From the IMG/VR virus record IMGVR_UViG_3300031994_000020: 64,000 nucleotides of DNA; one strand, 5' to 3'. Position 1 is the first letter of the stretch. Each line of letters begins with the position of its first letter. The notes beneath the pieces were generated by a model. The model was not told the origin of the DNA and made no database searches. It saw only the letters and a list, made by a program, of their open reading frames with translations. Below, in pieces: positions 17,096-64,000 of this stretch. This DNA comes from a virus. Lineage: Duplodnaviria > Caudoviricetes. The position numbers were made by a program, and so were the translations under genes.

Positions 17096-18202
17096 TTGGA
17101 TAATTTGCAAGAAAAAGAAGAAAAACTCCAAGCGGAAGATGGATATATAAAAATGGATTAGAGTTTAGAATCTCCCGCAGATAGAGTTAAAAAAGTAGAA
17201 GAAATTATTGCCAATACTCCTTCAGAAAGATTAACGCCAGTATATTTAGAAAAATTATCAGACTATATTATTTTAGCTATGACAAAAGAAGAAAGAAAAC
17301 AGAAAAAAATATTAACAGATAATCATATGGTAACAGTGAATAAGCGGGAGATGTCTTATGAAGGATTAGTAGGTAAATTAGAAAATGGAGAAGATGGTAT
17401 TTATAATATTATGACAAATGATAAAAATATTATCTTTGCTCCTAAAGTTAAAATTACAGAAGAAGATGTAGAAACTATTCCTGGTTTAAAAGAATTGCGG
17501 GAAGGTATAGAGCGAATAGAAGAAGAGTGTAAAAGCGCCCGCGGAGCTCGCGCCTTCCGCCTTAAAAAGCAACTTATAGAAATGAGACAAGATCAGTATG
17601 TTCTTAAAAACGCATATAAAAAACCAACTTATGTAATGAATATAACAAAAAGTTTATCTAAATTAGATTTACCAGATGAAAATTACGTTGATGATGATGG
17701 AAACCCGCAGAGTGCCACATTAATAAATTTATTTAATCCAAAGCATGTTTCTGCATTATTATGTAATTACTCTCAAATAAAAGAAGATTGTTGGGATAAA
17801 TTTAATAGCGATATAAAATGGTTAATGGAGGATCTTGATTTTCTTGTTGATGCAACATTAAAAGAAGACTATCCTTTATATTATGATATAGTTATTTATA
17901 AAATAGATGGATTACAAAATATAGATATTCAACAAAAATTATTTGAAGATTATGGAATTAAACATAGTGTAGAATATATATCATCACTTTAGCGCAATAA
18001 GATACCTAAAATGATTGCAGATAAAGCGGGAGATGATTATCTTATTTAGCACTATACTAATGAAGAATATGGAAAATGGAAAAAGTGCTCGCGGTGTGGA
18101 CAAATCAAGTTAGCCAATAATAGATTTTTTTCTAAAAATAGTACAAGCAAAGATGGATTTTATAGTATATGTAAATGCTGTAGAAATAAAAAGAAAGGAT
18201 GA
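17096..18202 (+). CDS. 368-aa protein with HTH-like region and C-terminal Cys4 zinc finger (3 in-frame TAG read as Trp); candidate regulator
   Basis: AGGAGG RBS + TTG; TAG at 17159, 17990 and ~18047; CSRC...CKCC lies after the TAGs; TGA stop just before the next ATG. Confidence 0.8.
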
Positions 18203-18208
18203 TGTTAA

Positions 18209-19417
18209 ATGGCAGAACAAAGATTTTGTTCCAAATGTCGTAAGACAATGGCGGCAGACACTAACTTTTATACCTATAAAGATGGAACGAAATGCGAATT
18301 ATGCAAAGCATGCTTAACTATGCACATAAATAATTAGGAGCCGGAGACATTTCTTTGGCTTTTGGAAAAATTTGATGTTCCTTGGATTCCATCAGAATAG
18401 AATGTATTAAGAGATAGAGCTTATCAAAAAGACCCCCATAAGATGACCGGTATGTCTGTCTTTGGTAAGTATTTGTCTAAAATGAAATTAAAACAATAGA
18501 ACAAATATACTTAGGCAGATACTGAAAGGCTAAAAGCGGAAGCTGAAGAAAAAGCTAAAAAATATGGTATGCCTGATGAACAAGCGCAAGCTCAATTAGA
18601 AGAAATGAAAACTGCTTATGAAAATGGAGAAATTTCAGAAGCTCAATATAAAACATATGCAGAACAAAATGCACCAGAGCCAACACCCGAACCTGCGGCG
18701 GCTCCTCCTTCTGATGGATATGAGTATCCGGTAAATTCTCCCTTTGAGGAAGTACCCATTGTAGATGTAGGTGCGGATCTTACTGATGAAGATAAAATTT
18801 ACTTGGCTATGAAATAGGGAAGACTTTATAAAGCATATGAATGGGTTGCGCTTGAGCAATTATATAAAGAGTTTATGGATTCATTTGATATTCAAGGTGC
18901 AGCAAGAATCGACACTCTTAAAATGATATGTAAAACAAGTTTAAAAATGAATCAAGCAATAGATTGCGGGGACGTCGATTCGTACCAGAAGTTATCTAGA
19001 GTATATGATGCCATGATGAAATCCGCAAAATTCACAGAAGCTCAAAATAAAGAAGGTAAATCTGATTTTGTTGACTCTGTTGGTGAATTAGTTGCTTATT
19101 GTGAAAAGAATGGTGGACAAATTCCTAAACATGAAATTAAAGCTCCTTATGATATTGTTGATAAAATTATAAATGATTTAAAAGAATATAATAAGACTTT
19201 AATATATGAAGATAAATCATTAGCGGAAGAAATTGAACAATATTTAAAGAATAAAGAAATTGCTGAGAATATGAAGAGAGATAGAGAAGCTGCACGAGAA
19301 AAAGGTCAAGATGAAGTTGAATTAACTGATGAAGATTATGAAAATTTTAAAAAAGCAATAGCAGAAGATAAAGAAAAAGATCAACAACTTGAAGCGGGAG
19401 GTGCTGATGAAGAATGA
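18209..19417 (+). CDS. N-terminal Zn-finger protein, probable terminase small subunit (5 TAG)
   Basis: CSKC...CKAC; joins track ORFs 18569 and 18875 in frame; ATGA overlap with the terminase gene. Confidence 0.7.
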
Positions 19418-21153
19418 GTTTACAAAATTTATTAGACCTCTCAGAATCAAGATCAGTTAAACAAGGTCTTTCTGAAGAAAGATTAAAAGAACAAATTCCT
19501 CATTTGAGGAAATTAATCTCTTTTTATAGAGAATATCCTGATTATCTTGTTGATTTTATGAAAGGTCCAGATAGTACTTTTCAATTTTATTTTTATCAAA
19601 GAATATTTTTAAGAGTGGTAATGCGACATAGATATGTTTATGCAACCTTCCCTCGTGCTTATAGTAAATCATTTTTAAGTATGATGGTTTTGATGCTTAG
19701 ATGTATTCTTTATCCTAATAGTCAATTATTCGTAACGACGGGCGGAAAAGAGCAAGCTGCAAGTATCACAATAGCTAAGATAGAGGAGATATGTAAGCTG
19801 ATTCCCGCACTTAATAATGAAATAAATTAGAACCGCGGTGTTTCTAAAAAATCTAAAGATGATGTAAAATATGTATTTAAAAACGGTTCTTCTATTGATA
19901 TACTTGCGGCAAGACAATCTTCCAGAGGTCAACGTAGAACAGGTGGCCTTATGGAGGAATGCGTGCTTATAGACGGTGATATACTTAATGAAGTTATAAT
20001 TCCTACTACAAACGTAGATAGATTACTACCGGATGGAAGTAGACATAAAGAAGAAAATGTAAATAAATCTCAAATATATATTACAACGGCGGGATAGAAA
20101 AATAGTTTTGCATATGATAAACTTGTGGAACTTTTAGTCCAGAGTGTAATTGATCCAAATGAGGTTATGGTAATAGGTGGAACTTATGAGACACCAGTAA
20201 CTGAAGGACTATTAGATGAGTCTTTTGTTGATCAACTTAAAATACAAGGTACTTATAATGATGAATCTTTTGATCGTGAATATAGATCAATCTGGTCTGG
20301 TGATGTAGAAAATGCTTTTTATTCAGCAGAAAAATTTGATAAACATAGAGTATTATTACAGCCAGAGTATGAATATAGCGGAAGGTCCTCTAAATCAGCC
20401 TACTATGTAATTGGCGTAGACGTTGGTCGTATTGGATGTACGACAGAGGCTTGTGTATTTAAATCAACACCTCAACCACAAGGTTCAGATCTTAAGACTC
20501 TTGTTAATATTTATACTTACGAATCAGAAGATTTTGAAACACAAGCAGTTAATTTAAAAAAATTATATTATAAATACAAGGCGCGGGTGCTCTCTATAGA
20601 CGCCAATGGTCTAGGTATTGGTCTCGTTGATTTTATGACTAAAGCTCAAGTAGATCCAGAGACTGGTGATGATTTACCTCCATTTGGAGTTGAAGGCGGT
20701 ACTTCAGAAGACGCTTCAGAGCTTTATAAAAATATAAAAGGGTATGGAGTTGAAGAAAATGCCATGTATTTAATTAAAGCAAATGCTCCTATAAATACAG
20801 AAGCTTATTCTTATGCTCAAACACAAATGTCAAGCGGAAAGGTAAAGTTTCTTATTGATGAACAAGCTGCAAAGACTAAATTAATGAGTCAAAAACAAGG
20901 ACAGACATTAAATGCAGATCAAAGAAATGAATATCTTAAACCTTTCGTTTTAACTTCAATATTAAGAGAACAAATGTTAAATTTGGTACAGGATAATGAA
21001 GGTGTTAATATTATTTTAAAGCAAAATAATAAAAGTATTAGAAAGGATAAATTTTCTGCTTTTATTTATGGTTTGTATTATATAAAACAAGAGGAAGATA
21101 AAAAGAGAAAGAGAAAGAAAAGAGATATAAGTCAAATGTTATTTTTTAGTTAA
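19414..21153 (+). CDS. terL: terminase large subunit (2 TAG: 19828, 20095)
   Basis: YQ..F, Walker A-like PRAYSKS, Walker B LMEE, ITTAG motif III, GVDVG nuclease, C-terminal KD..SA. Confidence 0.92.
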
Positions 21154-21216
21154 CTTGGGCAGTGAAAATTAAGAGAAGTAAGATTAAATTGATATACAGT
21201 ATAAAGGAGATTGATT

Positions 21217-21573
21217 ATGAGAGCAAGCCGTGGTGAAATAAAGATAGAAGATATATTAACTGATGCGGGATTGGTATTTAAAGAAGAGTATAGTTTTTCA
21301 GATCTCGTATCAAGTAGCGGTAGACCACTCAGGTTCGATTTTGCAGTCTTTGATGATAATGGAGACTTAGATTTTTTAATTGAGTATCAAGGTATTCAAC
21401 ACTATCAAGCTAAATCTAAATTTGGTGGTTCAAAAGGTCTTTATAGACAAAAATATAATGATGCTCAAAAAAGACAATATTGTCAACAACATAATATAAC
21501 TTTAGTTATTATTCCTTATTAGGATGAAAATATACTTGATTACGATTATATTATGAAAGCGGCAGGATATTAA
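21217..21573 (+). CDS. PD-(D/E)xK / very-short-patch-like endonuclease (1 TAG)
   Basis: LRFDF...IEYQG.QHY...K..YC....I.L..IPY[TAG=W]D. Confidence 0.75.
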
Positions 21574-21594
21574 TCCTGTCGTTTCCTTTGTTGC

Positions 21595-21623
21595 TTGACA
21601 ATTTAGAAAAAATATGTTATAAT
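21595..21623 (+). promoter_or_regulatory. sigma-A promoter upstream of portal
   Basis: TTGACA-N17-TATAAT with extended TG. Confidence 0.75.
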
Positions 21624-21653
21624 AGAAATATAGTGAGAAAAGGAGGTGTCTCT

Positions 21654-23273
21654 TTGCGTAATAGAATTAAAGAAAATCATATTAAAGATTTTAGTATGAT
21701 GACACCAAGAGATACTAACCCTAATCAAACTTCTGGTTATCAAGGTATCCCCGCCATTGATTTTAATAAGATTAGGATTGGTGCGAAAACCCTTGATGAT
21801 GCCATTCTTAAATTAGGTGATTTAAAGAAAGCTAATCCAAAATTAGCAGATAAAGGAACTATATTAAAAGCTATAACTAGTTATGATTTACAAACTATGA
21901 GAGAAGCATCTGATTTATTTTATAAAGTAAGTGGTATTTATTCTCGTATTATTAAATATATGGCTTTTATGTATCGCTATGATTGGATGATTACTCCTTT
22001 CGTTAATGATGAATCTGTTAAAAAAGAAAAATTATTAAAAGGTTTTCAAAATGCTTTAAATATATTAGATAATTTTGGAGTAAAGAAAGCTTTTGGAGAA
22101 ATTGCTAAAGAAGTACTTTTACATGGAGCTTATTATGGTTATAAGGTAGATACAAAGGAAGGAATGTGTTTACAAGAACTTCCTGTAAATTATTGTAGAA
22201 GTAGATTTAATCAAGGCAAAAGACCGGCAGTTGAGTTCAATATGAAATTTTTTGATGAACAGTTTAGAGATGCCGCACAGAAGATGAAAGTATTAAAAAT
22301 GTTTCCAGATGAATTTTCAAAAGGTTATATTTTATATAAGCAAAATAAATTACCTCCTGAATTCATGGGTGATACAAGTGGTTAGTATTTATTAGATCCA
22401 AATAAGACTGTTAAATTTAATATTGCGGGAGACGATTATCCTCCATTTATAGCAGTCATTCCTTTATTAATTGATTTGGATGAAGCACAGGCATTAGACA
22501 GAAAGAAAACTTTACAAAGATTATTAAAGATAGTAATTCAGAAGATGCCGTTAGATAAAAATGGTGAATTAATATTTGATGTGGATGAAGCTCAACAGCT
22601 TCATAATAATGCTGTTCAGATGTTAAGTAGAGCAATTGGTGTGGATGTCTTAACTACATTTGCAGATGTTGATGTAGCTAGTATGACCGAAAATCAGGCA
22701 TCTGCGCAGACAGATGATTTAGCAAGAGTTGAAAGACAAGTTTTTAATGAAGCTGGTTTATCTCAGATGCAATTTAATACTGATGGAAACATAGCATTAG
22801 AGAAGTCTATATTAAATGATGAATCAAGTATTTATAATATGATTCTTCAGTTTGAGCAATTTTTAAATGAGCTTATTGAACCATGTAATATGGGTAAGAA
22901 AGCTCAATTTAAAGCACAGATATTAAGCACTACAATTTATAATTATAAAGAGTTATCTAAATTATATAAAGAACAAATGCAAATTGGTTTCTCAAAGATG
23001 TTACCTCAAATTGCACTTGGTCAATCACAAAGTAGTATTCTTGCTAATGCATACTTTGAAAATGATATACTTGATCTGGTTAATGTATTTATACCTCCTT
23101 TAATGAGTTCTACTATGAATGAAAATATTCTTAATAGAGTTAAAGGCGGGAACCCAGGCACTGGGAGTCCATCAACTAACCCTGGTAAGGAACAGGAAGG
23201 CGCCGGCCGCAAGGAATTACCAGATGATCAAAAGTCAACAAAGACTATTCAAAATAGAGAGAGCATGAATTAA
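21654..23273 (+). CDS. portal protein (1 TAG at 22383)
   Basis: AGGAGGT RBS + TTG; 539 aa after readthrough; position between terminase and protease. Confidence 0.8.
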
Positions 23274-23286: not shown

Positions 23287-24636
23287 ATGGCACGAATGAG
23301 TGTTGCAACGATAGATTCTCCGGAGTTTATTAATATTACTTCTATTAATCCTCTTGTTTCTAAATGTGAGATAAAAGTTCTTTATGTTGGAGAGAATAGA
23401 AATAGAAGTTTTATTTCAAAAGAAGTAGCTACTGAAATGGCGCAGACTTTACCTGGATGTCCTATTGTTGGCTACTATATTGAAAATAAAGAAGACTTTG
23501 GAGATCATGGTGACCAAATGATTATTGATGGTGAGGGTATTAAATTTAATAAGCTCACTAAACCTTATGGATTTGTTGCTCCTGATAGTAAAATATAGTT
23601 CCAAAAGTTTGAAGATACTGATGAATTTGGAAATACTGTTATTAGAGATTATTTAATGACAGAAGGGTATATTTAGACTGGACAGTTTGAAGAGTGTCAG
23701 AGAGTTGTCGATAAAGGAAATCCGCAATCTATGGAACTTGATGAAAAAACTTTAAAGGGTCATTGGTCAACTGATAATAATCGTGGCATTGATTTTTTCA
23801 TTATAAATGACGCGATATTTTCTAAGTTATGTATTTTAGGAGAGGACGTTGAACCTTGTTTTGAAGGTGCTTCAGTTTCTGCTCCTCAAGTAAGTTCTCA
23901 TTTTAGTATGGATAATGAATTTACAGCTACTTTATCATCAATGATAAAAGAATTAAAAGAACTTACTTTTGCATTACAAAATAAAGGAGGAAATTCAATG
24001 GACGGTATGGAGAACACAACACCAGTAGTTGAAGAACAAGCTATTGAAGTACCTGCCGCAGAAGAAGTTGCTACAGAAAATTTTTCTGCTGAAGAGGACA
24101 AAGTAAGTTCAGAAACTATAGTTGAAAATCAAAATACAGTAGAAGAGTTCGAAAAGAAAGAAGAACCTGAAGAGGAAAAGAAAGAAGAGTCTGAAGAGAA
24201 AGAAAAAGAAGAAGATGATGAAGAGGAAAAAGAGCCTAAGAAAAATCATTCTTTAGAAGATGAATTTGCTTTAGTAAAAGAAGAACTTGACGAACTCAAG
24301 AATCAGTATTCACTTTTACAGAAAGAAAATGAAGAACTTATTAAGTTTAAGAACTCTGTAGAAGATGAAAAGAAAGATGCTCTTATAAATTCTTTCTATA
24401 TGCTTTCTGATGAAGACAAGAAAGAAGTTATTGAGAATAAATCTAAATATTCTTTAGATGATATTGAAGCTAAACTTTCTGTTATTTGCGTAAGAAAGAG
24501 AGTTAATTTCAATAATGAAGAAGTAAAAACAGAAGAACAGCCTGCTCTTATTTACAATTTTAATGCGGCAGAAGAAGTTGATGCACTTCCTGCATGGTTA
24601 AAGGCTGTTGAAGCTAAACGAAACAATAATAATTAA
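23287..24636 (+). CDS. prohead protease-scaffold fusion (2 TAG)
   Basis: N-terminal H...GYI[W]T...QSMEL protease-like domain; acidic coiled-coil C-terminus. Confidence 0.75.
23998..24636 (+). CDS. nested in-frame scaffolding protein
   Basis: internal AAAGGAGG RBS 7 nt before ATG 23998. Confidence 0.6.
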   Translation: MDGMENTTPVVEEQAIEVPAAEEVATENFSAEEDKVSSETIVENQNTVEEFEKKEEPEEEKKEESEEKEKEEDDEEEKEPKKNHSLEDEFALVKEELDELKNQYSLLQKENEELIKFKNSVEDEKKDALINSFYMLSDEDKKEVIENKSKYSLDDIEAKLSVICVRKRVNFNNEEVKTEEQPALIYNFNAAEEVDALPAWLKAVEAKRNNNN

Positions 24637-24649
24637 GGAGGAATATACA

Positions 24650-25345
24650 ATGGCATTTACAAGAGTCGGATATGGTCAAGTAGAGCCTAATCAACTTTCT
24701 GCTCAGAAAACTGGCCAGATTTATGCTAGTCTCCCTCTTGATCCTACTGTTAACGTACTTCAGAATGGTGAATTCATGTATTATGATTATGCCACTGGTA
24801 AAGTAACAGCAGATGATTCAACAGGTGTGGCAGAGCCTATGCTCGTATTCAATGAAATAAAACTTTATGAACCTTTCTGGAGACGTTCTTATAAAGATTT
24901 TGCAATGATTAGAGTTGGTGACAATTATGTTACTTCTGATCTTGCAGTTAATGGACCTATCGAAGGAAAATATGGTGATGGCGCTTTAACAACAGGCGTT
25001 GTTCCTACAGCAAATTACATGGATGATCAGACACCTCCAGTACAGCAAACACTCACCGGTCATACTGAGTATCCTTATCGAATGGATGGTATCGCACCTC
25101 GTCTTTTCAAGACAAATGTAGGTGATATTTATACTACTAATATGGTTAAAGCTGGTGCTAATGTAACTTATGCTGTTGGTGCATTACTTGTACCTGTTAA
25201 AAATACAACTTCAAAGACACTTGTTCTTGAAGAGTTCGTACCTGCTCAGACAGGCGATAAGCCTACTGGTATGGCATGGGTTGTTGTTAAAGTTTACACA
25301 ATGCCTGATGGTCAAGATGCTGTTAAGCTTCAGAGAGTACAATAA
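24650..25345 (+). CDS. head decoration / minor capsid protein
   Basis: RBS; position before the MCP; no TAG. Confidence 0.6.
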   Translation: MAFTRVGYGQVEPNQLSAQKTGQIYASLPLDPTVNVLQNGEFMYYDYATGKVTADDSTGVAEPMLVFNEIKLYEPFWRRSYKDFAMIRVGDNYVTSDLAVNGPIEGKYGDGALTTGVVPTANYMDDQTPPVQQTLTGHTEYPYRMDGIAPRLFKTNVGDIYTTNMVKAGANVTYAVGALLVPVKNTTSKTLVLEEFVPAQTGDKPTGMAWVVVKVYTMPDGQDAVKLQRVQ

Positions 25346-25364
25346 TTAATAGGAGGATAAGAAA

Positions 25365-26396
25365 ATGGCTTTAGAATTTAAAGATGTATTAGCATTAGCT
25401 AAAACCGTAGCCAAGGCTAATTCTTCTGCTCCTACTGCGTACAGCTTTGGAGATAAGAAATATAGCTATAATGAGTTACAGGAAACTTTAAGAGATGAGT
25501 TCAAGGAAATCGCTGGAACTTATTCACTTTATAGAGAAAATAAGAATACTGTATTTGCTCTTTTAGAGCAGACAATTGACGATGTATTACCCGCAAGAGT
25601 TCTTGAACAATATGGTCAGTTCGCTGAAATCAAGACTTTCGCACAGGGTGACAAGCCTATCTTCACACAGAAGATAACAACCGCTTCAAGAAGACGTGCA
25701 AGACAGTTTATCGGAAAAGTTGGTCTTGCTGGTTTATACGAAGTATTCAAGCTTGATGGAACTAGCTACGAAGTAACAACCAATGCAATTGGTGGTGCTG
25801 CGCAGATCGGTTTTGAAGAGTGGATGGATGGTCGTGTAGATTTCGCAGACGTTCTTGATATAGTAATGGAAGGTCTTGATTCTTGCATCTATGTTGAGAT
25901 TGAGAAGCAGTTATTAGGTGCTGTAGGTATTATGCAGGCAGCAAATAAGAGATCTGTAGCTGGTTGGAGTGAGACCGATATGGACGCTTTAATCTCCATC
26001 GCTGATTCTTATGGAAAATCTGCTATTTACTGTACATATGAATTTGCAGCAACTATGGTTCCTGCTCAGGGCTGGGTTTCTGATGAAATGAGAAATCAGA
26101 AGTGGAATAATGGTTATATCGCTAACTATAAGGGTCATACAGTAATTGTTCTTCCTCAGTCATATGAAGATGAAACAAATAAGGTAAAGGTTATCGATCC
26201 TAGTTTCGCATACATTATTCCTGTTGGTGCTGAAAAACCTGTTAAGATTGCATTAGAAGGACAGACAATCGTTGATGAATACACCAATTATGATAGATCA
26301 AGAGAAGTACAGATCTATAAGAAGATCGGTGTAAGAGCTATCTTTTCTAACGCTATCTGTGTATATCAGAACACAACATTAAAACGTGGTATTTGA
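25365..26396 (+). CDS. major capsid protein
   Basis: 343 aa, position, high-expression codon bias, followed by a terminator; no TAG. Confidence 0.85.
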   Translation: MALEFKDVLALAKTVAKANSSAPTAYSFGDKKYSYNELQETLRDEFKEIAGTYSLYRENKNTVFALLEQTIDDVLPARVLEQYGQFAEIKTFAQGDKPIFTQKITTASRRRARQFIGKVGLAGLYEVFKLDGTSYEVTTNAIGGAAQIGFEEWMDGRVDFADVLDIVMEGLDSCIYVEIEKQLLGAVGIMQAANKRSVAGWSETDMDALISIADSYGKSAIYCTYEFAATMVPAQGWVSDEMRNQKWNNGYIANYKGHTVIVLPQSYEDETNKVKVIDPSFAYIIPVGAEKPVKIALEGQTIVDEYTNYDRSREVQIYKKIGVRAIFSNAICVYQNTTLKRGI

Positions 26397-26421
26397 TAAT
26401 TAATTGCTTTAAAATAAAATA

Positions 26422-26456
26422 TGGGGAAGATGGATCAATCTTCCCCAATATTTTTA
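26422..26456 (+). terminator. intrinsic terminator
   Basis: TGGGGAAGAT/ATCTTCCCCA + T run. Confidence 0.75.
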
Positions 26457-26482
26457 TATAAGAGGTAAAAGGAGATAAGTTT

Positions 26483-27088
26483 ATGAAAGATATAAATAGT
26501 GGTTTAATTTCCGTTAAAAATAGAAATAATGGAACAACAGTTTATAAAATCCCAGATAAAAATATAGTAAGAACTTTTGCTCCAGGTGAAACAAAGCAGA
26601 TTTCTTTAGATGAATTAAAAGAACTTCAGTGGATTCCTGGCGGTGAATATTTACTTAAAAATCTTTTAATTGTTGATAATAAGGTAGCATTAGATGCTCT
26701 TAATATGAAAGTAGAACCAGAATATTTCTATACTGAAGATGATATTAGAAAACTTCTCACAGGTATGGATAATATGGATGAATTTCTTGATTTTCTTGAT
26801 TTTGCAACTGAAGGTGCTATTGATATAGCAAAAGATATTGCTGTAAAGGAAAGAATTCCCGATTCAAGAAAGAGAGAGGCTCTTTCAGCAAAAACTGGTT
26901 TTAATATAGATAGTGCAATAAATATGGACAAACTCTTTGAAGAAGAAGAGAATAAGCCTGAGCCAGAAAAGAAGGAACGCAGAGTAAAGGTGGCAGATGC
27001 TAAAGAAGAAGAAGCTCCTAAGAGAAGAGTTGCTATTTCTGAAAAAAGTGCGGAAACCGCATCTAAGTATAAAATAATTTCTAAATAA
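26483..27088 (+). CDS. hypothetical protein
   Basis: ORF with RBS. Confidence 0.8.
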   Translation: MKDINSGLISVKNRNNGTTVYKIPDKNIVRTFAPGETKQISLDELKELQWIPGGEYLLKNLLIVDNKVALDALNMKVEPEYFYTEDDIRKLLTGMDNMDEFLDFLDFATEGAIDIAKDIAVKERIPDSRKREALSAKTGFNIDSAINMDKLFEEEENKPEPEKKERRVKVADAKEEEAPKRRVAISEKSAETASKYKIISK

Positions 27089-27112
27089 TATTAGAAGAAA
27101 GTGAGGTGCCGA

Positions 27113-27718
27113 ATGAGTAGAATAAAAGCTCCCACCTCATTTGTAACCATATATGATAGTTTCTTTGCAAGAGTAACTGATGATATGTATATGGAGATAA
27201 CTGAACTTGAAACGTTAGAAATGTTACAAGACCTTTTATTAAATGCTATTTCTAGATTTGAATTTCCTAGAGTAGATATATTCGATTATGAAGAAGGTCA
27301 TTAGGAAGATATGGGTACTTATAAAGGCGTTGAAAGTGAAAATAAAAAAGTGCCAGCTACCGGATAGGTAGGTGGCTTTTTTAATTATCTTCTGACTGAT
27401 GAAGAAATTAATATTCTTGCTTTAAATATGGTTATAGAATGGTTAGGACAGCAATTAGATACTACTGAAAATTCAAGAATGAAATATAGTGGTTCTGATT
27501 TTAAATTTACTTCTCAAGCTAATCATATGGCTAAATTAAAAGTTCTTATAGATGCACATAAACAAGATTGTGTTCATTTACAGAGAATTTACAAGAGAAG
27601 AGTATTTACTGAAAATGGTGCCCAATCCACCATGGGTCAGATTGTCTCTCGCCCTGATTATGGAGTAGACAAAATTAATAGAATAGGTTGGTATTCTAAA
27701 CGTGGTATTAAAATATGA
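27113..27718 (+). CDS. putative head-tail adaptor (2 TAG)
   Basis: joins track ORFs 27101 and 27428 in frame; synteny. Confidence 0.65.
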
Positions 27719-28013
27719 TTTAGAATTTGATAATGATACTATAAAGAAAAGTCTTGATAGAATCACAAATCAAATTTTTAAATTATTACCAAGTAGAGAA
27801 GAAGGCGGCGATTGGTTAACGCCACTTCAAAACTTGATATATGAAATTATTGGTATGAAAGCACTTTGGGTCGATCAAACAAATTTGTTTTCTTTATTAT
27901 GTAAATTAGAAGCCTTATTAACATTAACAGATGAAAATGATTTTCTTATTTTTAGAAAACTTATTTTTGAATGTTTAGGGCTTGTAACTCAAATAAAAAA
28001 ATGTCTGGATTAA
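27702..28013 (+). CDS. hypothetical protein
   Basis: ORF overlapping both neighbours. Confidence 0.7.
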   Translation: MVLKYDLEFDNDTIKKSLDRITNQIFKLLPSREEGGDWLTPLQNLIYEIIGMKALWVDQTNLFSLLCKLEALLTLTDENDFLIFRKLIFECLGLVTQIKKCLD

Positions 28014-29568: not shown

Positions 29569-29571
29569 TTT

Positions 29572-53358: not shown

Positions 53359-54222
53359 GTGAGTTTTTATTTAAAGCAATATTATAAAGAAGCAGAAGAT
53401 GATGAAAATACTTATATGACATATATAGGTAACACTGGAGTAGCAACAATAATACAAAGAGATCAGACTGAAGATCCTTATGGAGGATTATTCCCTAATC
53501 CTTGCGTAAGATTAACTGGAGAAACTTTTAGTACAGATCAAACATATTATTTTCATGGGAAAATATATAGATTAGCAAATCCTCAAGAATTTACTGTAAA
53601 ATTAGCTAATTATGAAAATTATAGACATTCAAGTGTTTCTAACTATGCAAACCAATATCTTAGAATTTATAATATAAATCCTTTTAAAAGCACTGATAAT
53701 ATTAATGATAAATAGTATGATATTGAATTTATTTTTACTCCTGTAGCAGATGGCTATGATACAATTGTTTTTGAATTAACAAGAAGTACTGAAGATTTAG
53801 ATCCTAGCCAAACTAGAGTTCCTATTATTGGATATGAGGAATTAAGTCTTATTAATAATTCAAAAGCAACCATAGTTGATTCAGCAGCTACTTCTATAGT
53901 TAAATTAGGAATTCAAGCACGCCCTAGTTTTATAATATGTTTAAATGGAGAAGGAATTCGTGTTCCTTATAGTGGAATTTAGGAATTAAGAGAAGGAAGT
54001 GTTCCTATAGATTTTATTTCATTAGTAGCTCCCGCACAAGAAAAAGTAGATGCCACCACAGGAAAGTCAGCTATGGATTTATAGATGGAAGATGTAGAAA
54101 AAAAAGTTGAAGGTGTAGGTAGTAATTGCTTTTTTAATGTAAATGTAGGATTTTACCCTAAAACAAGACCTATGAGTGCTGTTGCTATTGATTATTTATA
54201 TACAAATGAACAAAAACAATAA
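53359..54222 (+). CDS. hypothetical baseplate-region protein (3 TAG)
   Basis: readthrough to TAA 54220, just before the next RBS. Confidence 0.7.
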
Positions 54223-54242
54223 GGAAGTGGAGGTTAATAAAT

Positions 54243-56165
54243 ATGGAAAGTTTTTATGGCGGAAGACCTGGCGCTTCCTTTGTAATTGTTAAACAATATG
54301 ATGGAATAAATATTCCAGATAAAAGTTTAAATAAATATAAATATTTTGCAGTTGATGCAGATGAAGTACCTTATTCAAGAACAGTAGGTTCTGGGAATCA
54401 TGAATTAATAGAAAGAACTGGAGAAAATTATAATCTTGATGTATTATAGAAAGCGTTACCTCTAAATGGAGCTACAATAGAAGAAACTATAGATATAGCA
54501 GATCCAAGTCAAAGTTATCGAGTATCAGTTCCTTTAGAATATCAAGAAGGTATGGTTCAAGATTTTTCAAGAGGGGCTGAAACAACAGGTAAAGTTAATT
54601 ATGGTGAATATGTTATAATTGACACTTTTGATAAAAATAACCCGGACAATGGTAAAGTTTTCCGCAGAGGTATAAATACAGGAGATCTTGGCGGGGCAGA
54701 ATATATTGGTCAAATAGTTGGTCCTCAAGGTGGAGTATCAGATATAGATTTAGTTCAATAGGATGATGTCCCTGAAGGCGCGGAAAGTGGATATTAGAGT
54801 GCATCTCAGGATAAACATAGTCTTATTCCAGGTTAGGATGGAACAAATTATAATGATAAAATTTATTATAAATATAAAGATTTTAAAGATAATAATGGTG
54901 TTATAAGTACTTTTAAAGTAGGATTTCAAATCCCTTATTTAGTACATGAATTTACAGGTGCTATAAGAAGTCCTTATAACAATGGAGTTCCAATTGATGA
55001 CACTTTTAATTTAATAGAAAAGATTGAAGAAGAAGAAGAGCATCCTTTTTATCAGGGCTTTAAAATTAATGTTCCTCAAGGTTTTAAAGGCGATACTCCA
55101 AGTAATTTTGAAATTTTCCCTACTGCTGTTAATGAAGCTCCTTATTAGAATAATGTACAATTAAGCGGCCCTGCTTCTGGAATTATCACTGGACTTATAA
55201 AAATAGATACTTATTATGATACTAAAACAGAATATTCATCTGCCGCAATTGTAGGTTCTCTTGAAGAAGGAAGTCCTATATTAGGTTATGTGTCATTAAA
55301 TCAACCAGAAGATAATAAATATTTGTATGAATATCATTTAGGATGTTTATTAACTAGATATGATGAACATGAAGCGGGAGATTCTAAATAGATTGATTTA
55401 GGACCTTATAGAGATATTGATAGCGTTAATATAAGCGCGGCAGGTGTAATTACAGTTAACTACACATGCGGAAGCCCGCAGACGCTTGATACTGTTATTG
55501 AATATCCTATTTCATTAACTGTTGGACCTGATGGTTCAATGACAACTTTATTTAATACTGGAAAATCTACTACTGTTACTAAATTAGTTAAATAGTTAAC
55601 TAACATAACAATTGAAAATAGTAGTCCTGAAGGAGTAGGTAATGATTATTTTAAAGCCTATTATAATGATGGTAGCAGTCAATATATTCAAAAGGCAACT
55701 GAAAATTATCCTATAAATTTTATTGATAAAGCTGCTGTTAATAGTAGTAATGGTCAGTTATTAGTTCGTTATACAAATCCCGCAAGTCGTGGTACGGTGC
55801 AATATGAAAATTATAATGACTAGAAAGAAGTAGGATTAGTAAAGGGGGACCCAGGTGGAGTCAGAATAGCTAAACAAGCTTCTAGTTATAGAGAATTAAT
55901 TGATCCTTTGACAGGTAAGGGAATCGCGCCTGAGAATTTTAGTACTCCTCCAGATTACAGTCGCGTTGGATGGTGTGCTACAGTTGAGAACCCTGGTTCA
56001 ACAAATCCCGCACTTTATTGGTATGATTATAATGATTCAACTTGGCGTATTCTTGCTTCGGTGGTTTCATCAACCGCAAATCCTGTAACAATTATAGGTT
56101 TTGATTATAACGCTTTGGCAGTTAATGGTGTTCAACTTATTGCTTCTCAAAGAAAATCTGTATAA
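54243..56165 (+). CDS. putative tail fibre/baseplate protein, ~640 aa (multiple TAG)
   Basis: 3 track ORFs in frame; G.IVGP.G and P.G.KGD motifs. Confidence 0.7.
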
Positions 56166-56171
56166 TAATTT

Positions 56172-56201
56172 TTGACCCATTCTTTTGAATGGGTCAATTT
56201 T
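56172..56201 (+). terminator. intrinsic terminator
   Basis: TTGACCCATTC/GAATGGGTCAA + T run. Confidence 0.7.
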
Positions 56202-56274
56202 CTTTTATTTAATATTAATAAAAATTATATTATATGATAAGATATTTTGGAGAAAAAGGAGGTATAAAATGTGA

Positions 56275-56880
56275 ATGAAAAGTAATAATGTTATATCTCA
56301 ATTAATTATAAAAGGAGATTCTGAACATAGTATTGAAGATGCTGTGTATAATATAGGTCCTGAATCAAAATATATTAGAGGTTTGTATCGTTCTAATAAT
56401 AATAATTTTGATGAATATTATTTATTAGGAACTGATACTATATCAACTTATTAGACGGAAGAAAGAGAAATAGATGGTGTTCCTATTGTTGTTAATGTAG
56501 AAGAAATAAAATTTTGTAGAGAAAGTGATGCTAGTAATTATTATGTTTTAAAGAAAGAGAAGTAGATTGAAAAGAATAAAAATATTGAATTAGTATCAGA
56601 TAATGACGTTTTAACTTTTCAATTTAATAATGAAGATGATATGCAATATATATCAGAATCTCAATCTATTAAACAAATAAATAATGTTATAGATATTTAT
56701 GTAGAAGATGAAGATATAAATATTATTGGCGATGTATAGCATGAGAATTAGTTCCTTTCTTTTGTTGAAAATGAAGGGATAGTTATTCAAGTTCTTCAAA
56801 AAGAAATAATATCTTCTACTAGAAAAATAGATGGAATAATAAAAACTTTTACTACAGAATCTATTTCAGATCCGAATTGA
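56275..56880 (+). CDS. hypothetical protein (4 TAG), paralog of 59441-60004; absent from the ORF track
   Basis: NNVISQL.IK...Y.IGPE.KY...L..SNN.N shared with the paralog. Confidence 0.8.
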
Positions 56881-56896
56881 GAGAAAGGAGTTAAAA

Positions 56897-59233
56897 ATGC
56901 CAGACATTGTAAAAAGAATTAGTCTTAAAAATAATCAAGGCGATTACACTAATTATGATATTGGTGCGGATGCTAACAATGTTAGTCTTGTTGAACCAAT
57001 CAATATTGGTGGCAATATATATAATGATGCAGAATCTGCATTAAATGCTTTAAATAATAATAACAGCGATGTTGTAATTAAAGATTTTATATCTAAAACC
57101 TAGACTGGTCTTACTAGCTTTGATGGTAAATATGTATGGACTGATGGAAATGATATTTATTATTCAAATAATTATCAGCAGTATAAATTAAATAAAAATA
57201 CCGGTGAATGGACTGAAGTTACTTGGGGCGGTTTAGCAAGTAATATTCAATTAGATGGTCAATATATATGGTCAGATGGAGAAGATACCTATTATTCAAG
57301 AAGCCTTACGGGACATCAATATAAATTAAATAAGACTTCTGGAGATTAGGAAACAGCTACTTAGCAAGGAAAATCATTATTCAATGGAATAAATGTATGG
57401 ACAGATGGAAATCAATATTATCTTTCATATAATTCAGATCAATATGTATTGGATAAAACAACAACTCCATATACTTGGGTTGCAGTTACTTAGTCTACAC
57501 CCGATGGAACATTTGGTGGGAATGGCTATTTTACGTAGTCAGACGGAAATAATACTTATTATTCTAGTGATAATACTCAATATGTTTTAGATAAAATAAA
57601 TCCTTATACATAGACACAAATGACATAGACTGGATTAACTTCCTTTATTGGTTCTAATGTTTGGACTTCTAATGAAGGAGATATTTATCTTTCTGAAGGA
57701 ACTAAACAATATGTTTTAAATAAAGAAACTTATAATTGGTCTCCCGTATCATGGTCTATTCAATTAGTTGATCAAACTAATTTTAAGGGAGAACATATTT
57801 AGACTGATGGAAGTGATGTTTATTTCTCTTATGGTTCAGAACATTTTATTTTTGACAATAGAAAAATAACAGAAGCTGGTGTACCAAATGGATTAGCTAC
57901 ATTAGATTCAAATGGTAAATTAAATAATACACAAATTCCTAGTGGAGCAATGGTTAAGGGTATTGATTATGTTACCGCTGGACAAAAAGCTAACACTACT
58001 TTAGGAAATGGAGCTACTGCGGAAGGTCAGAATACTACAGCAAGCGGACCTTATTCTCATGCTGAAGGGCAGAATACTACAGCAAGTGGACCATTAGCTC
58101 ATGCAGAAGGACAAAGCACTGTTGCAAAAGAAGTAAATGCTCATACAGAAGGTAATGGAACAACAGCTTCTAATGCAAATACTCATGCAGAAGGACTTTC
58201 AACAATTGCTTCTGGCCCTAATGCACATGCGGAAGGTAGTGGCACTGTTGCAAGAGAAGCAAATACACATGCTGAAGGTAATAGTACAACAGCTTCTAAC
58301 GCAAATGCTCATGCAGAAGGATATTTAACAATTGCTTCTAATGCAAATGCACATGCGGAAGGTAATGGTACAACAGCTGCTCATACAAATGCTCATGCAG
58401 AAGGTTTTAAAACTGTAACTGGTAATGCTAATCAGCATGTAGGCGGAAGATGGAATATAGGTAGAAATAATACTTTATTTGAAATTGGTAATGGTACAGC
58501 AAATAATGCAAGATCAAATGCTTTTGAAGTATATGAAGATGGAAATATATTTGTTGCAGGAAATGTTGCTAATAATAGGAAAGAAACATTTGTAACTAAT
58601 AGAGGAATACTTAATTCTTCTTTTGTTATTTCAGATGATTTTAAAAATAATAGTATTTATTCTTATTTTAGTAATTCTACTGAAAATATAAATATATATA
58701 TTAATGGTGCTAAATATTTTGGTATTAAAACATCAAATAATGTTTATTTATATACAGGACAAGTTAGTACTGGATATAATGGAATATATGTAAGAGTATT
58801 TAATGAAAGCACAGGATTATTAATACATCAAGGATATTATAATGATGCATCTTTAACTACCACTTTAGAATTAACAGGGAATATTAATTATACATTTTAT
58901 TTCTATGATATGAATAATGCTCCTTGGGATGAACATATTATTTATAAAGAATATTGGTTTGGAAGTGGATCACAAGCTGCCGGTCCAGCTGTTGAATGTT
59001 CGACATTAGATTCGCATACTTCACTATATTATGGAGTAGTAGATGTTGGTATTCCTAATTATCGTTTAGTATCTGCTAATCTTACATCTTCTTGGACACC
59101 TACTCCTGATAAAATAACGCCTACACTTTTATTAAGAGATTGGGATAAGATTAGGATTTTTGTGGGAGCGAGTCCAGAAACTCTTACTATGGGGTTAAGA
59201 TGTTTATATCTTAAACGTGGAAGCGAAACATAA
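56897..59233 (+). CDS. tail fibre/adhesin, 778 aa: Trp-rich ~45-aa repeats plus YadA-head-like 14-aa repeats (8 TAG)
   Basis: single frame; 5 WxxxTW...WTDG repeats; ~10 AHAEG repeats. Confidence 0.85.
58010..58420 (+). repeat. 42-bp coding tandem repeats (TASxxxAHAEGxxT)
   Basis: ~10 copies. Confidence 0.85.
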
Positions 59234-59440: not shown

Positions 59441-60004
59441 GTGACAACAAATAATGTTATTTCACAATTAAATATAAAAAGATCAAGTGATGGATACGAT
59501 ACTTATTATATTGGTCCAGAATTAAAATATGTTGGTAGCTTAGCTACATCTAATAATCATAATCTTGAAGAACAAATGATAATGGGAGTAGATAGACAAA
59601 TTGTTTCTTATTATGATGAAGTAAATAAAGCGCAAATTGAAATAATAGATTTTCGTAGAAATAGCGATACAAAATATTATACTTTAGAAAAAATAAAGTA
59701 TGATGGAGATTATGGTATGAGTGTTGCTTATGTTCAAGGAAATGTATTAAATTTTAATACTTCTAATATATTTTGTTCACAAGATCATATTTTAGATCAA
59801 AATGAATATGATCCAAATATGATTTTTACAGATAATAAATTTGATATAACATCAGACTCTATATTAGAAGTAGATACTCTTTATTATACAGATCCTGATG
59901 ATACAAGCGTACCTGATGGAAAGAAAGCAATATCTATAAAAACAACAATGAGAATTACTAAAGGCGGTCATTCTATGATTGTTGAAACTGTTCAAGAGCC
60001 TTGA
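59441..60004 (+). CDS. hypothetical protein, paralog of 56275-56880
   Basis: GGAGG RBS + GTG. Confidence 0.8.
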   Translation: MTTNNVISQLNIKRSSDGYDTYYIGPELKYVGSLATSNNHNLEEQMIMGVDRQIVSYYDEVNKAQIEIIDFRRNSDTKYYTLEKIKYDGDYGMSVAYVQGNVLNFNTSNIFCSQDHILDQNEYDPNMIFTDNKFDITSDSILEVDTLYYTDPDDTSVPDGKKAISIKTTMRITKGGHSMIVETVQEP

Positions 60005-60033
60005 TAAAATAAGAGAAAAGGAGTGGTAAAAAG

Positions 60034-60309
60034 ATGCCAAATAAGATTATAAATCAAATTAATTTAAAAAATTCTGATGGACAATCATCTGAACTTTATG
60101 ATATAGGTGCTAATGCTGTTAATGTTATGTATGATAATGATACTAATATAAAAACAAAGATTGATAGTAAAGCAGATACACAAGCGGTAGGTCAATCTAT
60201 TCAACAAATAAGAAATGTAATTCCATCTACCGCAACAAGTAGTAATCAATTAATAACAGCGAATGATTTAGATACTGCAATATATGATGTTCTTAATACC
60301 CCCGTTTAA
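60034..60309 (+). CDS. short fibre-anchor-like protein
   Basis: N-terminus shared with 56897 and 62022 (I.L.N..G....YDIGA.A.NV). Confidence 0.75.
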   Translation: MPNKIINQINLKNSDGQSSELYDIGANAVNVMYDNDTNIKTKIDSKADTQAVGQSIQQIRNVIPSTATSSNQLITANDLDTAIYDVLNTPV

Positions 60310-60327
60310 TAAAAGGAGGTAATAAAA

Positions 60328-61014
60328 ATGAGTTTAAAAAGTGTTTTCGTTGATATAGCAAATAGTATTAGAAGTAAAACTGGAACTTCTGAATTAATTA
60401 AGCCCGTAGATATAGCAGATGTAATAAATAATAGTACTTTAGGCGGCGGTGAATTTGTAATTGCAGATAATGGAGCATTAAAATTTAATTCTAGTGTATT
60501 TAATATGCCTGTGAATATTTCTGATAATGTCACTGATATGCGTAATTGTTTTTATGGTTGTAGTAATTTTAATCAACCTATTAACATACCTAATAACATT
60601 GCTTATATGGGTGGCTGTTTTGCAGGTTGTGACAACTTTAATCAACCTATTAATATATCTAATAATGTTACTAATATGTATGAATGTTTTGCAGGTTGTA
60701 CTAATTTTAATCAACCTGTTAATATACCTAATAACATTGCTCATATAGAGCGTTGTTTTTTGGGTTGTAGCAATTTTGGGCAGAATATTTTTTTAAACAA
60801 AACTAATTTAACCCCTATGTTTTATAGATCTATGCTTGGATCTTGTAATAATTCAAAAACAAAACGAATTTTCATTGGGGCCGGAGTTTCTCCTGGTAAT
60901 CTTATAGCTTATACTAATGAATTTTCAATAGTTGGAAATACAATCACATAGTCATCAAATTCAAATTGCACATATAATACAGCATATAATATATATATTT
61001 ATAATAATAGATAA
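60328..61014 (+). CDS. DUF285/BspA-like LRR protein, 4 repeats (1 TAG)
   Basis: FNQPxNIPNxxxxMxxCFxGCxN 23-aa repeats; TAG 60949, then TAA 61012. Confidence 0.8.
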
Positions 61015-61028
61015 AGGAGGTACAATGA

Positions 61029-61997
61029 ATGGCGATTTTAGAAGATGTTTTTATAAATATAGCTAATAGTATTAGAAGTAAAACTGGAACCTCTGAATCA
61101 ATTAAACCTATAGATATGCCAAATATAATAAATAATATAAGTGCTGGCGGTATTTATAATATAACTACAGGAAATGCAGCAACATCATTTAATAAAGAAA
61201 CATTTAATTATCCTGTTAATATTTCTAATAATGTTACTGATATGAGTAATTGTTTTAATAATTGTACTATTTTTAATCAGCCTATTAATATACCTAATAG
61301 TGTTACTAATATGTGTAATTGTTTTATACATTGCTATGAATTTAATCAACCTGTTAATATACCTAATAGTGTTACTGATATGAATAATTGTTTTAGCTAT
61401 TGTGGTTTTGGTTTTAATCAACCTATTAATATACCTAATAGCGTTACTAATATGGAAAGTTGCTTTCATTTTTGTAATAATTTTAATCAACCTATTAATA
61501 TACCTAATAATATTACTAGTGTGTATGATCTTTTTTATAATTGCTATAGTTTCAATCAATATGTAAATATACCTAATAGTGTTACTAATATGTGTGATTG
61601 TTTTAGTGGTTGTTAGAATTTTAATCAACCTGTTAATATACCTAATAATGTAGCAAGCCTTTATTATTGTTTTAGAAATTGTAAAAATTTTAATCAGCCT
61701 ATTAATATTCCTAATAGTATAACAAATATGGAAGGTTGTTTTGAGGCTTGTCAAAATTTTGAACAAGATATTATTTTAAAGAAAACTGATTTGCTTCCTA
61801 TTATGTATGCAAATATATTTAAAAATTGTAATAATTCAAAAAGAAAACAAATTTTTGTTGGTATAGGAGGGTCTCCTGGAAATCTTATAGCTTATACTAA
61901 TAGATATTCAATAGTTGGAGATACAATAACATAGACAACAAATTCAAATTGTGCTTATAATACAGCTTTCAATATATATATTTATAACAATAAATAA
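61029..61997 (+). CDS. DUF285/BspA-like LRR protein, 8 repeats (2 TAG)
   Basis: paralog of 60328; TAG at 61614 and 61932; TAA 61995. Confidence 0.8.
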
Positions 61998-62021
61998 CAA
62001 ATAAAGGAGGTATAAAATAAA

Positions 62022-64000
62022 ATGCCATTAATCAAACAAATTAACTTAGACAACGATGGTGTTGTAACCTCATATGATATTGCGGCAGATGCTACTAACG
62101 TAGAATTACAAAGCCCTGTCACAATAGATGAACAACAGTATGAAACTGCGGGAGGCGCGTTAGAGGCGGCCGCCGCAGCTATAAATAACATAGAAATAGA
62201 TATAGCTGATCTTGGTATAAGCAAGATAGGTATATCTCAGATTGGTATGGCTAATGGTGTTGCAAGTCTTGATGCTAATGGTAAGATACCAGTTTCTCAG
62301 TTGCCTAGTACCGGTTCGGATGTATATCGTTACAATATAGTTACCAAATCAACGGGCGGTTCGGATGCAGCGATAACTATAAAGAAATATCTTAATGAAG
62401 AGTTGGTATCATCAACTGACTACCCTTATAAGACATTTGATCATACCCATGTGATTATTGATAGTTTATTTGACATGATTTATGCCGAAGATGGTCAGGC
62501 TAAGTATACAATGACTTTACTTGAGAACTCTACCGATCATAATGCCGGATATTCAAGAAGATGGCAATACAATGAAACTGTAGACTTCTCAGAAACATTC
62601 ATAATGTCAGATGAAGATATTTCGTTTATCGCTCCTCCATTCTACGCAAATGTATCATATGTTGTTGGCGATAAAGTAACACGTAATGGTAACTTTTACA
62701 GATGTAAAATGCCTCATACCGGTGCATGGGATATTGCTGATTTCGATAAGATATCTGTGGATGAGTTATTTGACGAGGTGTATGATTCTCTTGATGATAT
62801 CGCAATTGACATAACGCAACTTGGTATAAGTAAGGTAGGCATTTCCCAGGTTGGTATCGCTGGAGGTGTTGCTAGTCTTGGTAATGACGGTAAGGTACCG
62901 AACAGTCAGTTACCTGCTATACCTACGAAAGTTTCAGAACTTCAAAATGATAGTGGATTTATTACAGGATATACAGAAACCGATCCTACAGTTCCCGCCT
63001 GGGCGAAAGCTTCTACTAAGCCTAGCTATACTGCAAGTGAGGTCGGCGCAGTTGCAACTACAGCTGTCGGTAGCGCTAATGGAGTCGCTGAACTAGATAG
63101 CACAGGTAAGGTACCTGCCGCACAGCTTCCTTCTTTTGTTGATGAAATTATAGAAGGTTATCTGAATCCCGCAGATGGTAAGTTTTATGAAGAATCTACT
63201 TATGAAACAGAAATACTTGGGGAAGAAGGTAAGATATATACTGAATTAGCAACTAATAAGACTTATAGATAGTCTGGTTCCGCATTCGTTGAGGTAAGTG
63301 AGAGTCTTGCTCTTGGTGAAACATCATCTACCGCATATGCGGGCAATAAAGGTAAAGCAAATGCAGATGCGATTGCCGCAATTAAAGATGGAACTAACAT
63401 TGACAGTTTTAGTGATGTTGAGACTGCTCTTAGTAATAAGCAGCCTAAGACTCTTGATACTCCTATAGTAGTAGATGAAACAAGTTATACTACTGTAGAA
63501 TCTGCTATGAATGCTATTAATAATAAAGCTGTGATAGTAGATGATGAAATGTCTGATACAAGTATTAATCCTGTTCAGAATAAGGTTATTACAGAAGCTT
63601 TAAATGGCAAAGAAGATGTGATGGAATATACCTCTGATACTAATGTGCTTGAAGTAAATTTACAGCATAGTGCTTTAGTATCAGGCATGGCGATTGACAT
63701 ACAGCCCATACAGGACTTACACGGATATGATAAACCGTGGGTTGGTGGCGCTTCAAAACAGCTTCTCCCCTTAACGGTAGCAGGATTAAAAGCATTAAAC
63801 ACCACAGGAACATGGTCTGGAAATAATTATTCCATTCATGGTGGAGTGATAACCCTTTTAACAGATACGGATGAAAACGTAATAGGGATAAATGCAAACG
63901 GGACATTTACCACAAGAGTAGACTTTTCTTTAGGTAGCGTGTCTCTTAATGGAAGTTATGTTATAAGTGGTTCAACAAATGGTGGTTTGGATAAGTGGAT
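62022..64000 (+). CDS. tail fibre/adhesin protein, partial (1 TAG at 63270)
   Basis: three GVA.LD..GK.P..QLP repeats; TYR[W]SGS..VE.S.SLALGETSSTAY; frame open to the window end. Confidence 0.8.

Follow-up and report, generated by a model that had tools for sequence, protein, structure and literature searches.

Probable reading of in-frame TAG as tryptophan in the late genes of a siphophage with an SPbeta-type terminase

Two reassignments of stop codons, TAG to Gln and TGA to Trp, were the only ones seen in phages by Borges et al. (preprint), and phage suppressor tRNAs screened in E. coli extracts gave Gln or Ala with anticodon CUA and Trp with UCA. A change of TAG to Trp appears, within the literature we searched, in Balanophora plastids only. 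Here we analyse a 64,000-nucleotide stretch of DNA (the window), which corresponds to bases 73443-137442, read on the reverse strand, of one 146,105-bp virus record (IMG/VR IMGVR_UViG_3300031994_000020, 93% complete) belonging to a siphophage with an SPbeta/YonF-type terminase, from gut or rumen. The window contains a rightward late arm, running from an ATG at 17060 (+) to its end at 64000, whose genes are interrupted by TAG. We conclude that TAG very probably codes for Trp in this phage, as a synonym of TGG used mainly in late genes, with TAA and TGA the sole stops and a phage tRNA with anticodon CUA, tRNA(CUA), as the decoder. A preliminary description of the window had taken this to be an undescribed phage code, and we likewise could not find such a variant described for any phage (subscription-only papers lay outside the search).

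Under the standard code (table 11) the plus strand of the late arm is a string of same-frame fragments, which fuse into 29 open reading frames (ORFs) once TAG is read through. In 20 of these 29 the interruption is by in-frame TAG alone, with 120 TAG in total (119 among the 14,796 codons of 28 ORFs, and one more from the ORF at 21211-21573), in line with the preliminary description, which had put the figures at about 20 genes and over 100 TAG but had started the arm at 17096 rather than at the ATG at 17060. In-frame TAA or TGA is absent from the late-arm ORFs, every one of which terminates at TAA or TGA directly before the next start, with gaps between ORFs mostly of 3-60 nt; the ATGA overlaps that had been singled out at 19414-19417 and 51216-51219 are real, and the peptide contexts ITTAG*KN, SG*YLLDP, GYI*TG, LTAV*NG, GYTGE*, GTIAG*T and FSE*ST (asterisk for TAG) are all found. 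With TAG as sense, the coding share of 17060-63998 is 95.5%, and the greedy-ORF coding density of the whole genome rises from 0.786 under table 11 to 0.913, the outcome of a comparison that had been proposed as a check. TAA (89) and TGA (34) end all 123 ORFs counted across the genome and so stay stops, as had been proposed. Among these 123 ORFs, which are of 100 aa or more, 6 at most could have TAG as their end; TAG is thus avoided as a terminator. A follows TAG in 47% of cases, compared with a background of 35%, a bias too weak to build on.

The meaning of the codon was read from homologue columns. The ORFs were translated with X at TAG and aligned by tblastn to 85 related loci, of which five are stretches of related phages in GenBank and 80 are IMG/VR loci retrieved with the terminase (67-92% identity). 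Residues at TAG columns were W 793, Y 125, F 100, in-frame TGA 73, gaps 34 and others at most 15 each, with Gln at 8 of about 1,200 aligned residues; the columns are neither Gln-dominated nor random, as they would have been had the Trp assignment of the preliminary description failed. In a likelihood test on the 38 standard-code subjects only, with substitution frequencies learned from the same alignments and one vote per column to avoid counting near-copies, the per-column-weighted log-likelihoods were -126.8 for Trp, -188.2 for Tyr, -196.2 for Phe and -218.3 for Gln. With Trp ahead by 60-90 nats and a Trp-type tRNA(CUA) present, that assignment is upheld. The residue spectrum at TAG columns in these subjects (W.736, F.079, Y.074) agrees with that at the phage's own TGG columns (W.67, Y.123, F.103) and is unlike the spectra at Q or E columns. 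W is the majority residue in 17 of the 22 TAG columns having at least 5 homologues, and several columns are invariant Trp in 60-67 homologues. In the nearest large relative (G006, 122 kb, standard code) the 67 aligned TAG sites correspond to TGG at 40, Tyr at 10 and Gln at none. As a control of the method, the same column test on relatives returned Glu, Gln or Trp according to lineage.

The late arm is ordered, by PHROGs matches, as sigma-factor-like, YonG-like, YonF/SPbeta-type large terminase, portal, head, tape measure and large tail proteins, and its genes are as follows (window coordinates).

17060..18202 (+): first late-arm gene, sigma-factor-like (phrog_5767), 4 TAG in frame, two of them at codons 8 and 34
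18209..19417 (+): YonG-like protein (phrog_3314), encoded before the terminase gene and joined to it by an ATGA overlap, 5 TAG
19414..21153 (+): terminase large subunit (TerL), YonF/SPbeta type, 2 TAG
21211..21573 (+): small ORF, 1 TAG
21588..23273 (+): portal protein (phrog_2739), 1 TAG
23287..24636 (+): head-module protein (phrog_3313), 2 TAG
24608..27088 (+): three head genes without TAG, with 2, 4 and 1 TGG
25365-26396 (+): likely major capsid protein (phrog_4088), one of those three TAG-free head genes
27101..28957 (+): two head/connector genes, 27101-27718 with 2 TAG and 27971-28957 with 6 TAG
28984..33365 (+): virion structural genes (phrog_6123, 4051, 2729), TAG (3) only in 31621-32784
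33433..41826 (+): tail tape measure protein, 2797 aa, 22 TAG
41937..47369 (+): tail protein of no named family, 1810 aa, 30 TAG and just 5 TGG
48511..53336 (+): two tail proteins joined by an ATGA overlap, 902 aa (7 TAG) and 706 aa (8 TAG)
53359..59233 (+): four tail/fibre genes of 287, 640, 201 and 778 aa, with 3, 8, 4 and 8 TAG respectively
59441..64000 (+): last arm genes in the window, 59441-60004 with 0 TAG, 60328-61014 with 1 and 61029-61997 with 2
62022 onward, past the window end (+): gene of 1634 aa, 3 TAG in all, 1 inside the window

Gene by gene, the sigma-like gene has W in 65 of 66 homologues at TAG column 311 and in 57 of 66 at column 330, the rest being mostly in-frame TGA, while columns 64 and 203 of the YonG-like gene hold W or in-frame TGA only and its column 97 mostly W. 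In the terminase, W stands in 71 of the 85 loci at column 139, with in-frame TGA in 10, and in 69 at column 228, with in-frame TGA in 8; portal column 266 is W in 67 of 70 homologues, and columns 104 and 130 of the head-module gene are W in 61 of 63 and 60 of 61. Four of the six TAG columns of 27971-28957 have a W majority. In the tape measure, whose homologues are 25-27% identical, W or in-frame TGA stands at columns 257, 1945, 2198, 2343 and 2683. The search of related loci found no relatives of the 1810-aa tail protein; its columns 348, 600 and 1257 are W or in-frame TGA in a code-4 relative. Columns 132, 143 and 340 of the 902-aa protein and 421 and 481 of the 706-aa protein are TGG in a standard-code relative (G005). 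Even in the fast-evolving tail genes (22-33% identity) W and in-frame TGA together are the top partners (15 of 69). A Pfam search on ten late proteins gave no match except a sub-threshold DUF5048, and the endolysin, compared with the PDB, has a single weak match with one X column.

The candidate decoder lies outside the window. Both ARAGORN and Rfam (54.2 bits) call tRNA(CUA), 93 nt long, at genome 10262-10354. An array of 22 tRNAs and a transfer-messenger RNA (tmRNA) are present in the genome; the window itself has a tRNA-Lys alone. The tRNA(CUA) gene starts 8 nt after the phage's tRNA-Trp(CCA), with which it shares the first five acceptor pairs, G73 and the T arm, and its D arm is also of Trp type. 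Among all the tRNAs collected it is most similar to a 96-nt tRNA(UCA) found in a TGA-to-Trp relative and to the neighbouring tRNA-Trp (83% identity to each), and it differs from the tRNA-Tyr(GUA) that the phage also encodes. Both a tRNA-Trp and a CUA tRNA are missing from the nearest standard-code relative. The Trp identity set of Bacillus subtilis includes G73, G2-C71, G3-C70 and G5-C68 (PMC9976931), and the anticodon C34 C35 A36 is a major determinant for tryptophanyl-tRNA synthetase (TrpRS). The acceptor stem of tRNA(CUA), GGGAGCU/AGCUCCU plus G73, has G73, G2-C71, G3-C70 and G5-C68, and replaces G4-C69 by A4-U69, as does tRNA-Trp(CCA). The anticodon C34 C35 A36 is missing from the decoding arm, which bears CUA instead; a CCA loop occurs in a second hairpin only.

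This second hairpin is shared with the relative's tRNA(UCA). In both, a normal anticodon arm is followed by a short linker and then by a hairpin of 5 bp that occupies the position of a long variable arm; its 7-nt loop, N-U-CCA-A-A, is the Trp anticodon loop, and on its 3' side come xGGU and the T arm, exactly as they do after the native anticodon arm of tRNA-Trp. Scanning IMG/VR by pattern gave 48 distinct phage tRNAs of this two-hairpin build, 47 with UCA and CUA in this phage only. The stem varies, with 38 versions among the 48, and forms all five pairs in 34 of the tRNAs and four of the five in 13; the loop is constant. A scan blind to the loop found TCCAAA in 29 of 62 long-arm UCA tRNAs and UUCCAAC in several more. 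A further family of long-arm tRNA(CUA) has its own conserved hairpin, and the two families are located as follows.

L146-L343 (IMG/VR), e.g. L104:1856-1951, L190, L219, L246: tRNA(UCA) family, 93-100 nt, phage-only, labelled tRNA-SeC by ARAGORN
L087-L100 and L002:42443-42533 (phAss-1): second long-arm tRNA(CUA) family, 88-95 nt, conserved extra hairpin like CCCUCUGAAGG, no CCA loop

Two IMG/VR pattern scans for further CUA tRNAs with a CCA hairpin returned only chance non-tRNA matches among the matches listed, and a metagenome scan returned three such tRNAs, in arrays syntenic with that of this genome and one of them on a 144.6-kb contig. The TAG-bearing ORFs of these three loci are mostly spurious antisense frames, with one clean Trp column; at one of the loci (L494) in-frame TAG stands opposite this phage's TGG, and this phage's TAG opposite TGG.

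The 146-kb record (93% complete) has no match to the RF-1 domain of release factors (PF00472) or to the class Ib synthetases TrpRS and TyrRS (PF00579). With no TrpRS and no release-factor gene in the genome, the host's TrpRS would have to charge tRNA(CUA), if the codon is read as Trp, and the tRNA would have to compete with host release factor 1 (RF1). We propose that an anticodon arm was duplicated, one copy being altered to read a stop while the other was retained to show CCA to TrpRS; the second hairpin would in this way act as a TrpRS identity tag and make up for the CCA lost from the decoding arm. More generally, we put forward, tentatively and with rather less than even confidence, that these phage-only derivatives of tRNA-Trp carry in their invariant second Trp-anticodon hairpin a portable TrpRS identity tag that leaves the decoding anticodon free to change. 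On a rival reading, the second hairpin is a vestigial duplicate or a second decoding arm.

Two nt past tRNA(CUA) is a tRNA-like gene (L086:3857-3975, genome 10356-10474) with good acceptor, D and T arms and an AT-rich insertion of about 50 nt in the position of the anticodon arm, and at genome 7792-7864 there is a tRNA-like gene with a four-base anticodon (aaag). The phage tmRNA lies at genome 18416-18760 (L086:11917-12264; Rfam 80.8 bits) and encodes the tag AKKIVSFPTKVALAA; a tmRNA is also found in a relative bearing a CUA two-hairpin tRNA (L520:649-995). It could be relevant to ribosomes stalled at TAG.

In the late arm TGG makes up 0.51% and TAG 0.80% of codons, together an ordinary Trp content of 1.31%. 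Genome-wide, TGG accounts for 1.34% of codons where genes have no TAG; in TAG-bearing genes it drops to 0.60%, with TAG at 1.01%. The frequency of TGG in the other two frames is the same in both sets, which rules out a blanket TGG-to-TAG error, and genes rich in TGG are devoid of TAG, and conversely. Use of TAG also follows gene class. Among genes of 100 aa or more, 71 have no TAG; most of these are early or replication genes, and replication genes of polymerase size are among them. TAG is concentrated in lysis and homing-endonuclease genes and in those for the sigma-like factor, packaging, head and tail. Outside the window there are 5 TAG in the endolysin gene, 3 in the gene that precedes it, 5 and 7 in two homing-endonuclease genes and 13 in the gene of a phrog_22899 protein. 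Since the replication and early genes use TGG only, they are readable by an uninfected cell. Beyond the codon meaning, the gene-class bias and the tRNA with its kinship, which are observed, late genes would be gated by the supply of tRNA(CUA), and the bias agrees with the gating of late and lysis genes that Borges et al. proposed in other recoded phages.

The alternative that survives best gives TAG two meanings in time, with host RF1 terminating at it early and Trp inserted later once tRNA(CUA) is abundant, so that read-through would be partial and timed rather than a full reassignment. The genome has no RF2 or anti-RF1 gene, the class bias just described sets TAG-free early genes apart from TAG-bearing late, lysis and homing-endonuclease genes, the sigma-like first late gene has TAG as early as codons 8 and 34, and the same logic was proposed by Borges et al. 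Proteins of 2797 aa with 22 TAG and of 1810 aa with 30 demand near-complete read-through at each site, however, and hardly any of the 123 ORFs (the 6 at most noted above) could use TAG as their end. We regard a dual meaning as unlikely, if still worth keeping in mind, and it refines the assignment of TAG to Trp rather than excluding it.

That TAG encodes another aromatic residue, Tyr or Phe, or is decoded ambiguously as several residues, is much less credible. Tyr and Phe are second and third commonest at TAG columns, bacterial tRNA-Tyr is marked by a long variable arm, and amber suppressors of the supF type are tRNA-Tyr. Yet both residues are just as frequent at columns where the phage itself has TGG, Trp outscores Tyr by 61 nats and Phe by 69, TAG stands in columns that are invariant W across 60-67 homologues, and tRNA(CUA), with its G73 and Trp-type acceptor stem, D arm and T arm, is unlike the phage's own tRNA-Tyr(GUA).

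Gln (table 15), the meaning of TAG in crAss-like and Lak phages and the one assumed for the relative phAss-1, is the sole TAG reassignment reported in phages, and has in its favour that phAss-1 was deposited in a 'code 15 clade', that another relative (L076) fits TAG to Gln, and that E. coli charges tRNA-Trp(CUA) with Gln (PMC9976931). The column test nonetheless refutes it for this phage: Gln provides just those 8 of the residues at TAG columns and none at the 67 sites aligned to G006, and its model lies 91 nats below Trp. It also leaves the depletion of TGG in TAG-bearing genes unexplained, and CAA and CAG already supply 3.9% Gln in the late arm. There is scarcely any chance left for it.

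An independent contig bears on the authenticity of the TAGs. A protein search reached it through a 342-aa terminase fragment beginning directly after the same TAG; this separate JGI contig (L545) is 98.7% identical over 8.6 kb, differing from the window at 95 of 8,598 aligned bases, and keeps 13 of 13 TAG and 8 of 8 TGG in the shared late genes. Although most of the evidence comes from a single metagenomic contig, there is a negligible chance that the TAGs stem from errors of assembly or base calling (at modified G, for instance) or from decay of the genome, given that the 1.3% divergent contig has the same 13 TAG, TGG is depleted in frame and not in the other two frames, in-frame TAA and TGA are zero, a matching tRNA(CUA) is present and TAG is restricted by gene class. 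Truncated terminase calls of 80-84% identity were considered as further recoded relatives and rejected, their genes being split by an HNH endonuclease gene. At three such loci (L546:2376-4979, L547 and L548, 84% identical) an HNH/NUMOD4 homing-endonuclease gene splits the large terminase, as in Enterococcus phages EF1 and EF5, and the resulting calls mimic recoding.

Some observations weigh against TAG as Trp, or against the way in which we suppose it to be read. About a quarter of the residues aligned at TAG columns are not W, an equal share to that at TGG columns, which leaves room for some TAG sites where another residue is tolerated. The E. coli tRNA-Trp with a CUA anticodon is charged mainly with Gln (PMC9976931), so that the case for Trp charging here is an evolutionary rather than a biochemical one. 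The minimum-free-energy fold of the 93-nt RNA has the second hairpin but not the full cloverleaf (z = -1.69). Hints of the host come from metagenome-assembled genome (MAG) bins that hold relatives only, labelled Erysipelotrichaceae, Lachnospiraceae and Bacilli, from which a Bacillota host is probable. Bacillota are generally not known to have GlnRS, and the competitor that puts Gln on tRNA-Trp(CUA) in E. coli would then be missing. The assignment of TAG to Trp is drawn here from sequence evidence.

The relatives of this phage differ widely in code. Cultured ones are Enterococcus phages H1, EF1 and VRE9, Geobacillus virus E3 and an Alicyclobacillus phage, with phAss-1 further off. In a terminase tree (FastTree) the phage falls inside a well-supported standard-code clade, its nearest neighbour being 92% identical, and the code labels need at least 9 changes. 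The column test applied to relatives assigned TGA to Trp in 14 loci (among L032, L034, L065-L068, L072, L075, L079-L085) and TAG to Gln in one, L076; at the divergence of phAss-1, Met, Gln and Asn tie. About 30 IMG/VR loci with many in-frame TAG and about 73% TerL identity (L035-L039, L043-L064, L069-L073, L078) gave E 602, D 121 and Q 110, with Glu favoured over Gln by 15-50 nats in 12 of 12 tested, and apparently read TAG as Glu. Their tRNA(CUA) is of 74-76 nt with no extra arm, and pairwise identity allows no isotype to be assigned to it. We know of no report of TAG to Glu in phages.

The leftmost 17 kb of the window holds small leftward genes, and the sign of the GC skew flips at 16-18 kb, where the strand switches. 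The features to the left of the late arm are:

16938..16966 (-): sigma-70-type promoter, perfect TTGACA-17-TATAAT with TG, at the strand switch and pointing away from the late arm
5707-5779 (-): lone tRNA-Lys(UUU), among small early genes and far from the main tRNA array

In the same leftward early block, a 106-aa ORF at window 8985-9305 (-) is open only if 4 TAG are read through, and has 0 TGG; it may be a recoded gene beyond the late arm.

Phage gene callers try tables 11, 4 and 15 only, and a TAG-to-Trp phage would be shredded by them or given some 200 wrong glutamines; phAss-1 was itself deposited as code 15 on the assumption of Gln. The amino acid assigned to a freed stop varies even among close relatives, one terminase family having standard, TGA-to-Trp, TAG-to-Trp, TAG-to-Gln and apparently TAG-to-Glu members. 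An amber suppressor derived from tRNA-Trp loses its main identity element, and the build with two hairpins hints at how nature may have solved this, in a way that could serve genetic-code expansion. If the portable identity tag is real, it would be a natural design for anticodon-independent charging and would explain how a single siphophage family came to move repeatedly between the standard code, TGA to Trp, TAG to Trp and TAG to Glu or Gln, four codes in all.

Compared with the recoded phages of Borges et al. (crAss-like, Lak, Jade, Agate; table 15), this phage likewise has one stop in frame and concentrated in structural and lysis genes, a suppressor tRNA of its own, early genes in the standard code and a coding density restored by the alternative code. 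It differs in reading Trp rather than Gln, in having no RF2 or synthetase gene, genes that only some members of that type possess, and in a tRNA of Trp type that bears a second, anticodon-like hairpin. Table 4 phages (TGA to Trp, 14 in the same family; AP1/HF2 TrpRS:tRNA(UCA) pairs, PMC12636597) also give a stop to Trp, and the table 4 relatives have a tRNA(UCA) that is 83% identical, with the same two-hairpin build, and in-frame TGA in columns where TAG stands here; in this phage, by contrast, the codon is TAG, the anticodon is CUA, TGA is a working stop (34 of 123 ORFs) and there is no phage TrpRS. phAss-1, of the proposed Phassvirus (PMC10607447; OQ749652), comes from human gut, has a TerL 44% identical to that of this phage, TAG-interrupted late genes and tRNA-Sup(CTA) genes, one of them long-arm, but is annotated with TAG to Gln, and its long-arm tRNA carries the hairpin CCCUCUGAAGG with no CCA loop. 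The E. coli suppressor su+7 (trpT, CUA) is likewise a tRNA-Trp body with its anticodon changed from CCA to CUA; su+7 takes mainly Gln through GlnRS (PMC9976931), whereas here the evolutionary record says Trp and there is an extra hairpin with a CCA loop. Formally, the codon table is identical to NCBI table 32 of the Balanophoraceae plastid, since TAG as Trp and TAA/TGA as stops, the two points tested, are both found; that table, however, serves the extremely AT-rich plastid of a parasitic plant, and here the same code is used by a phage, in part of its genes, within a standard-code host.

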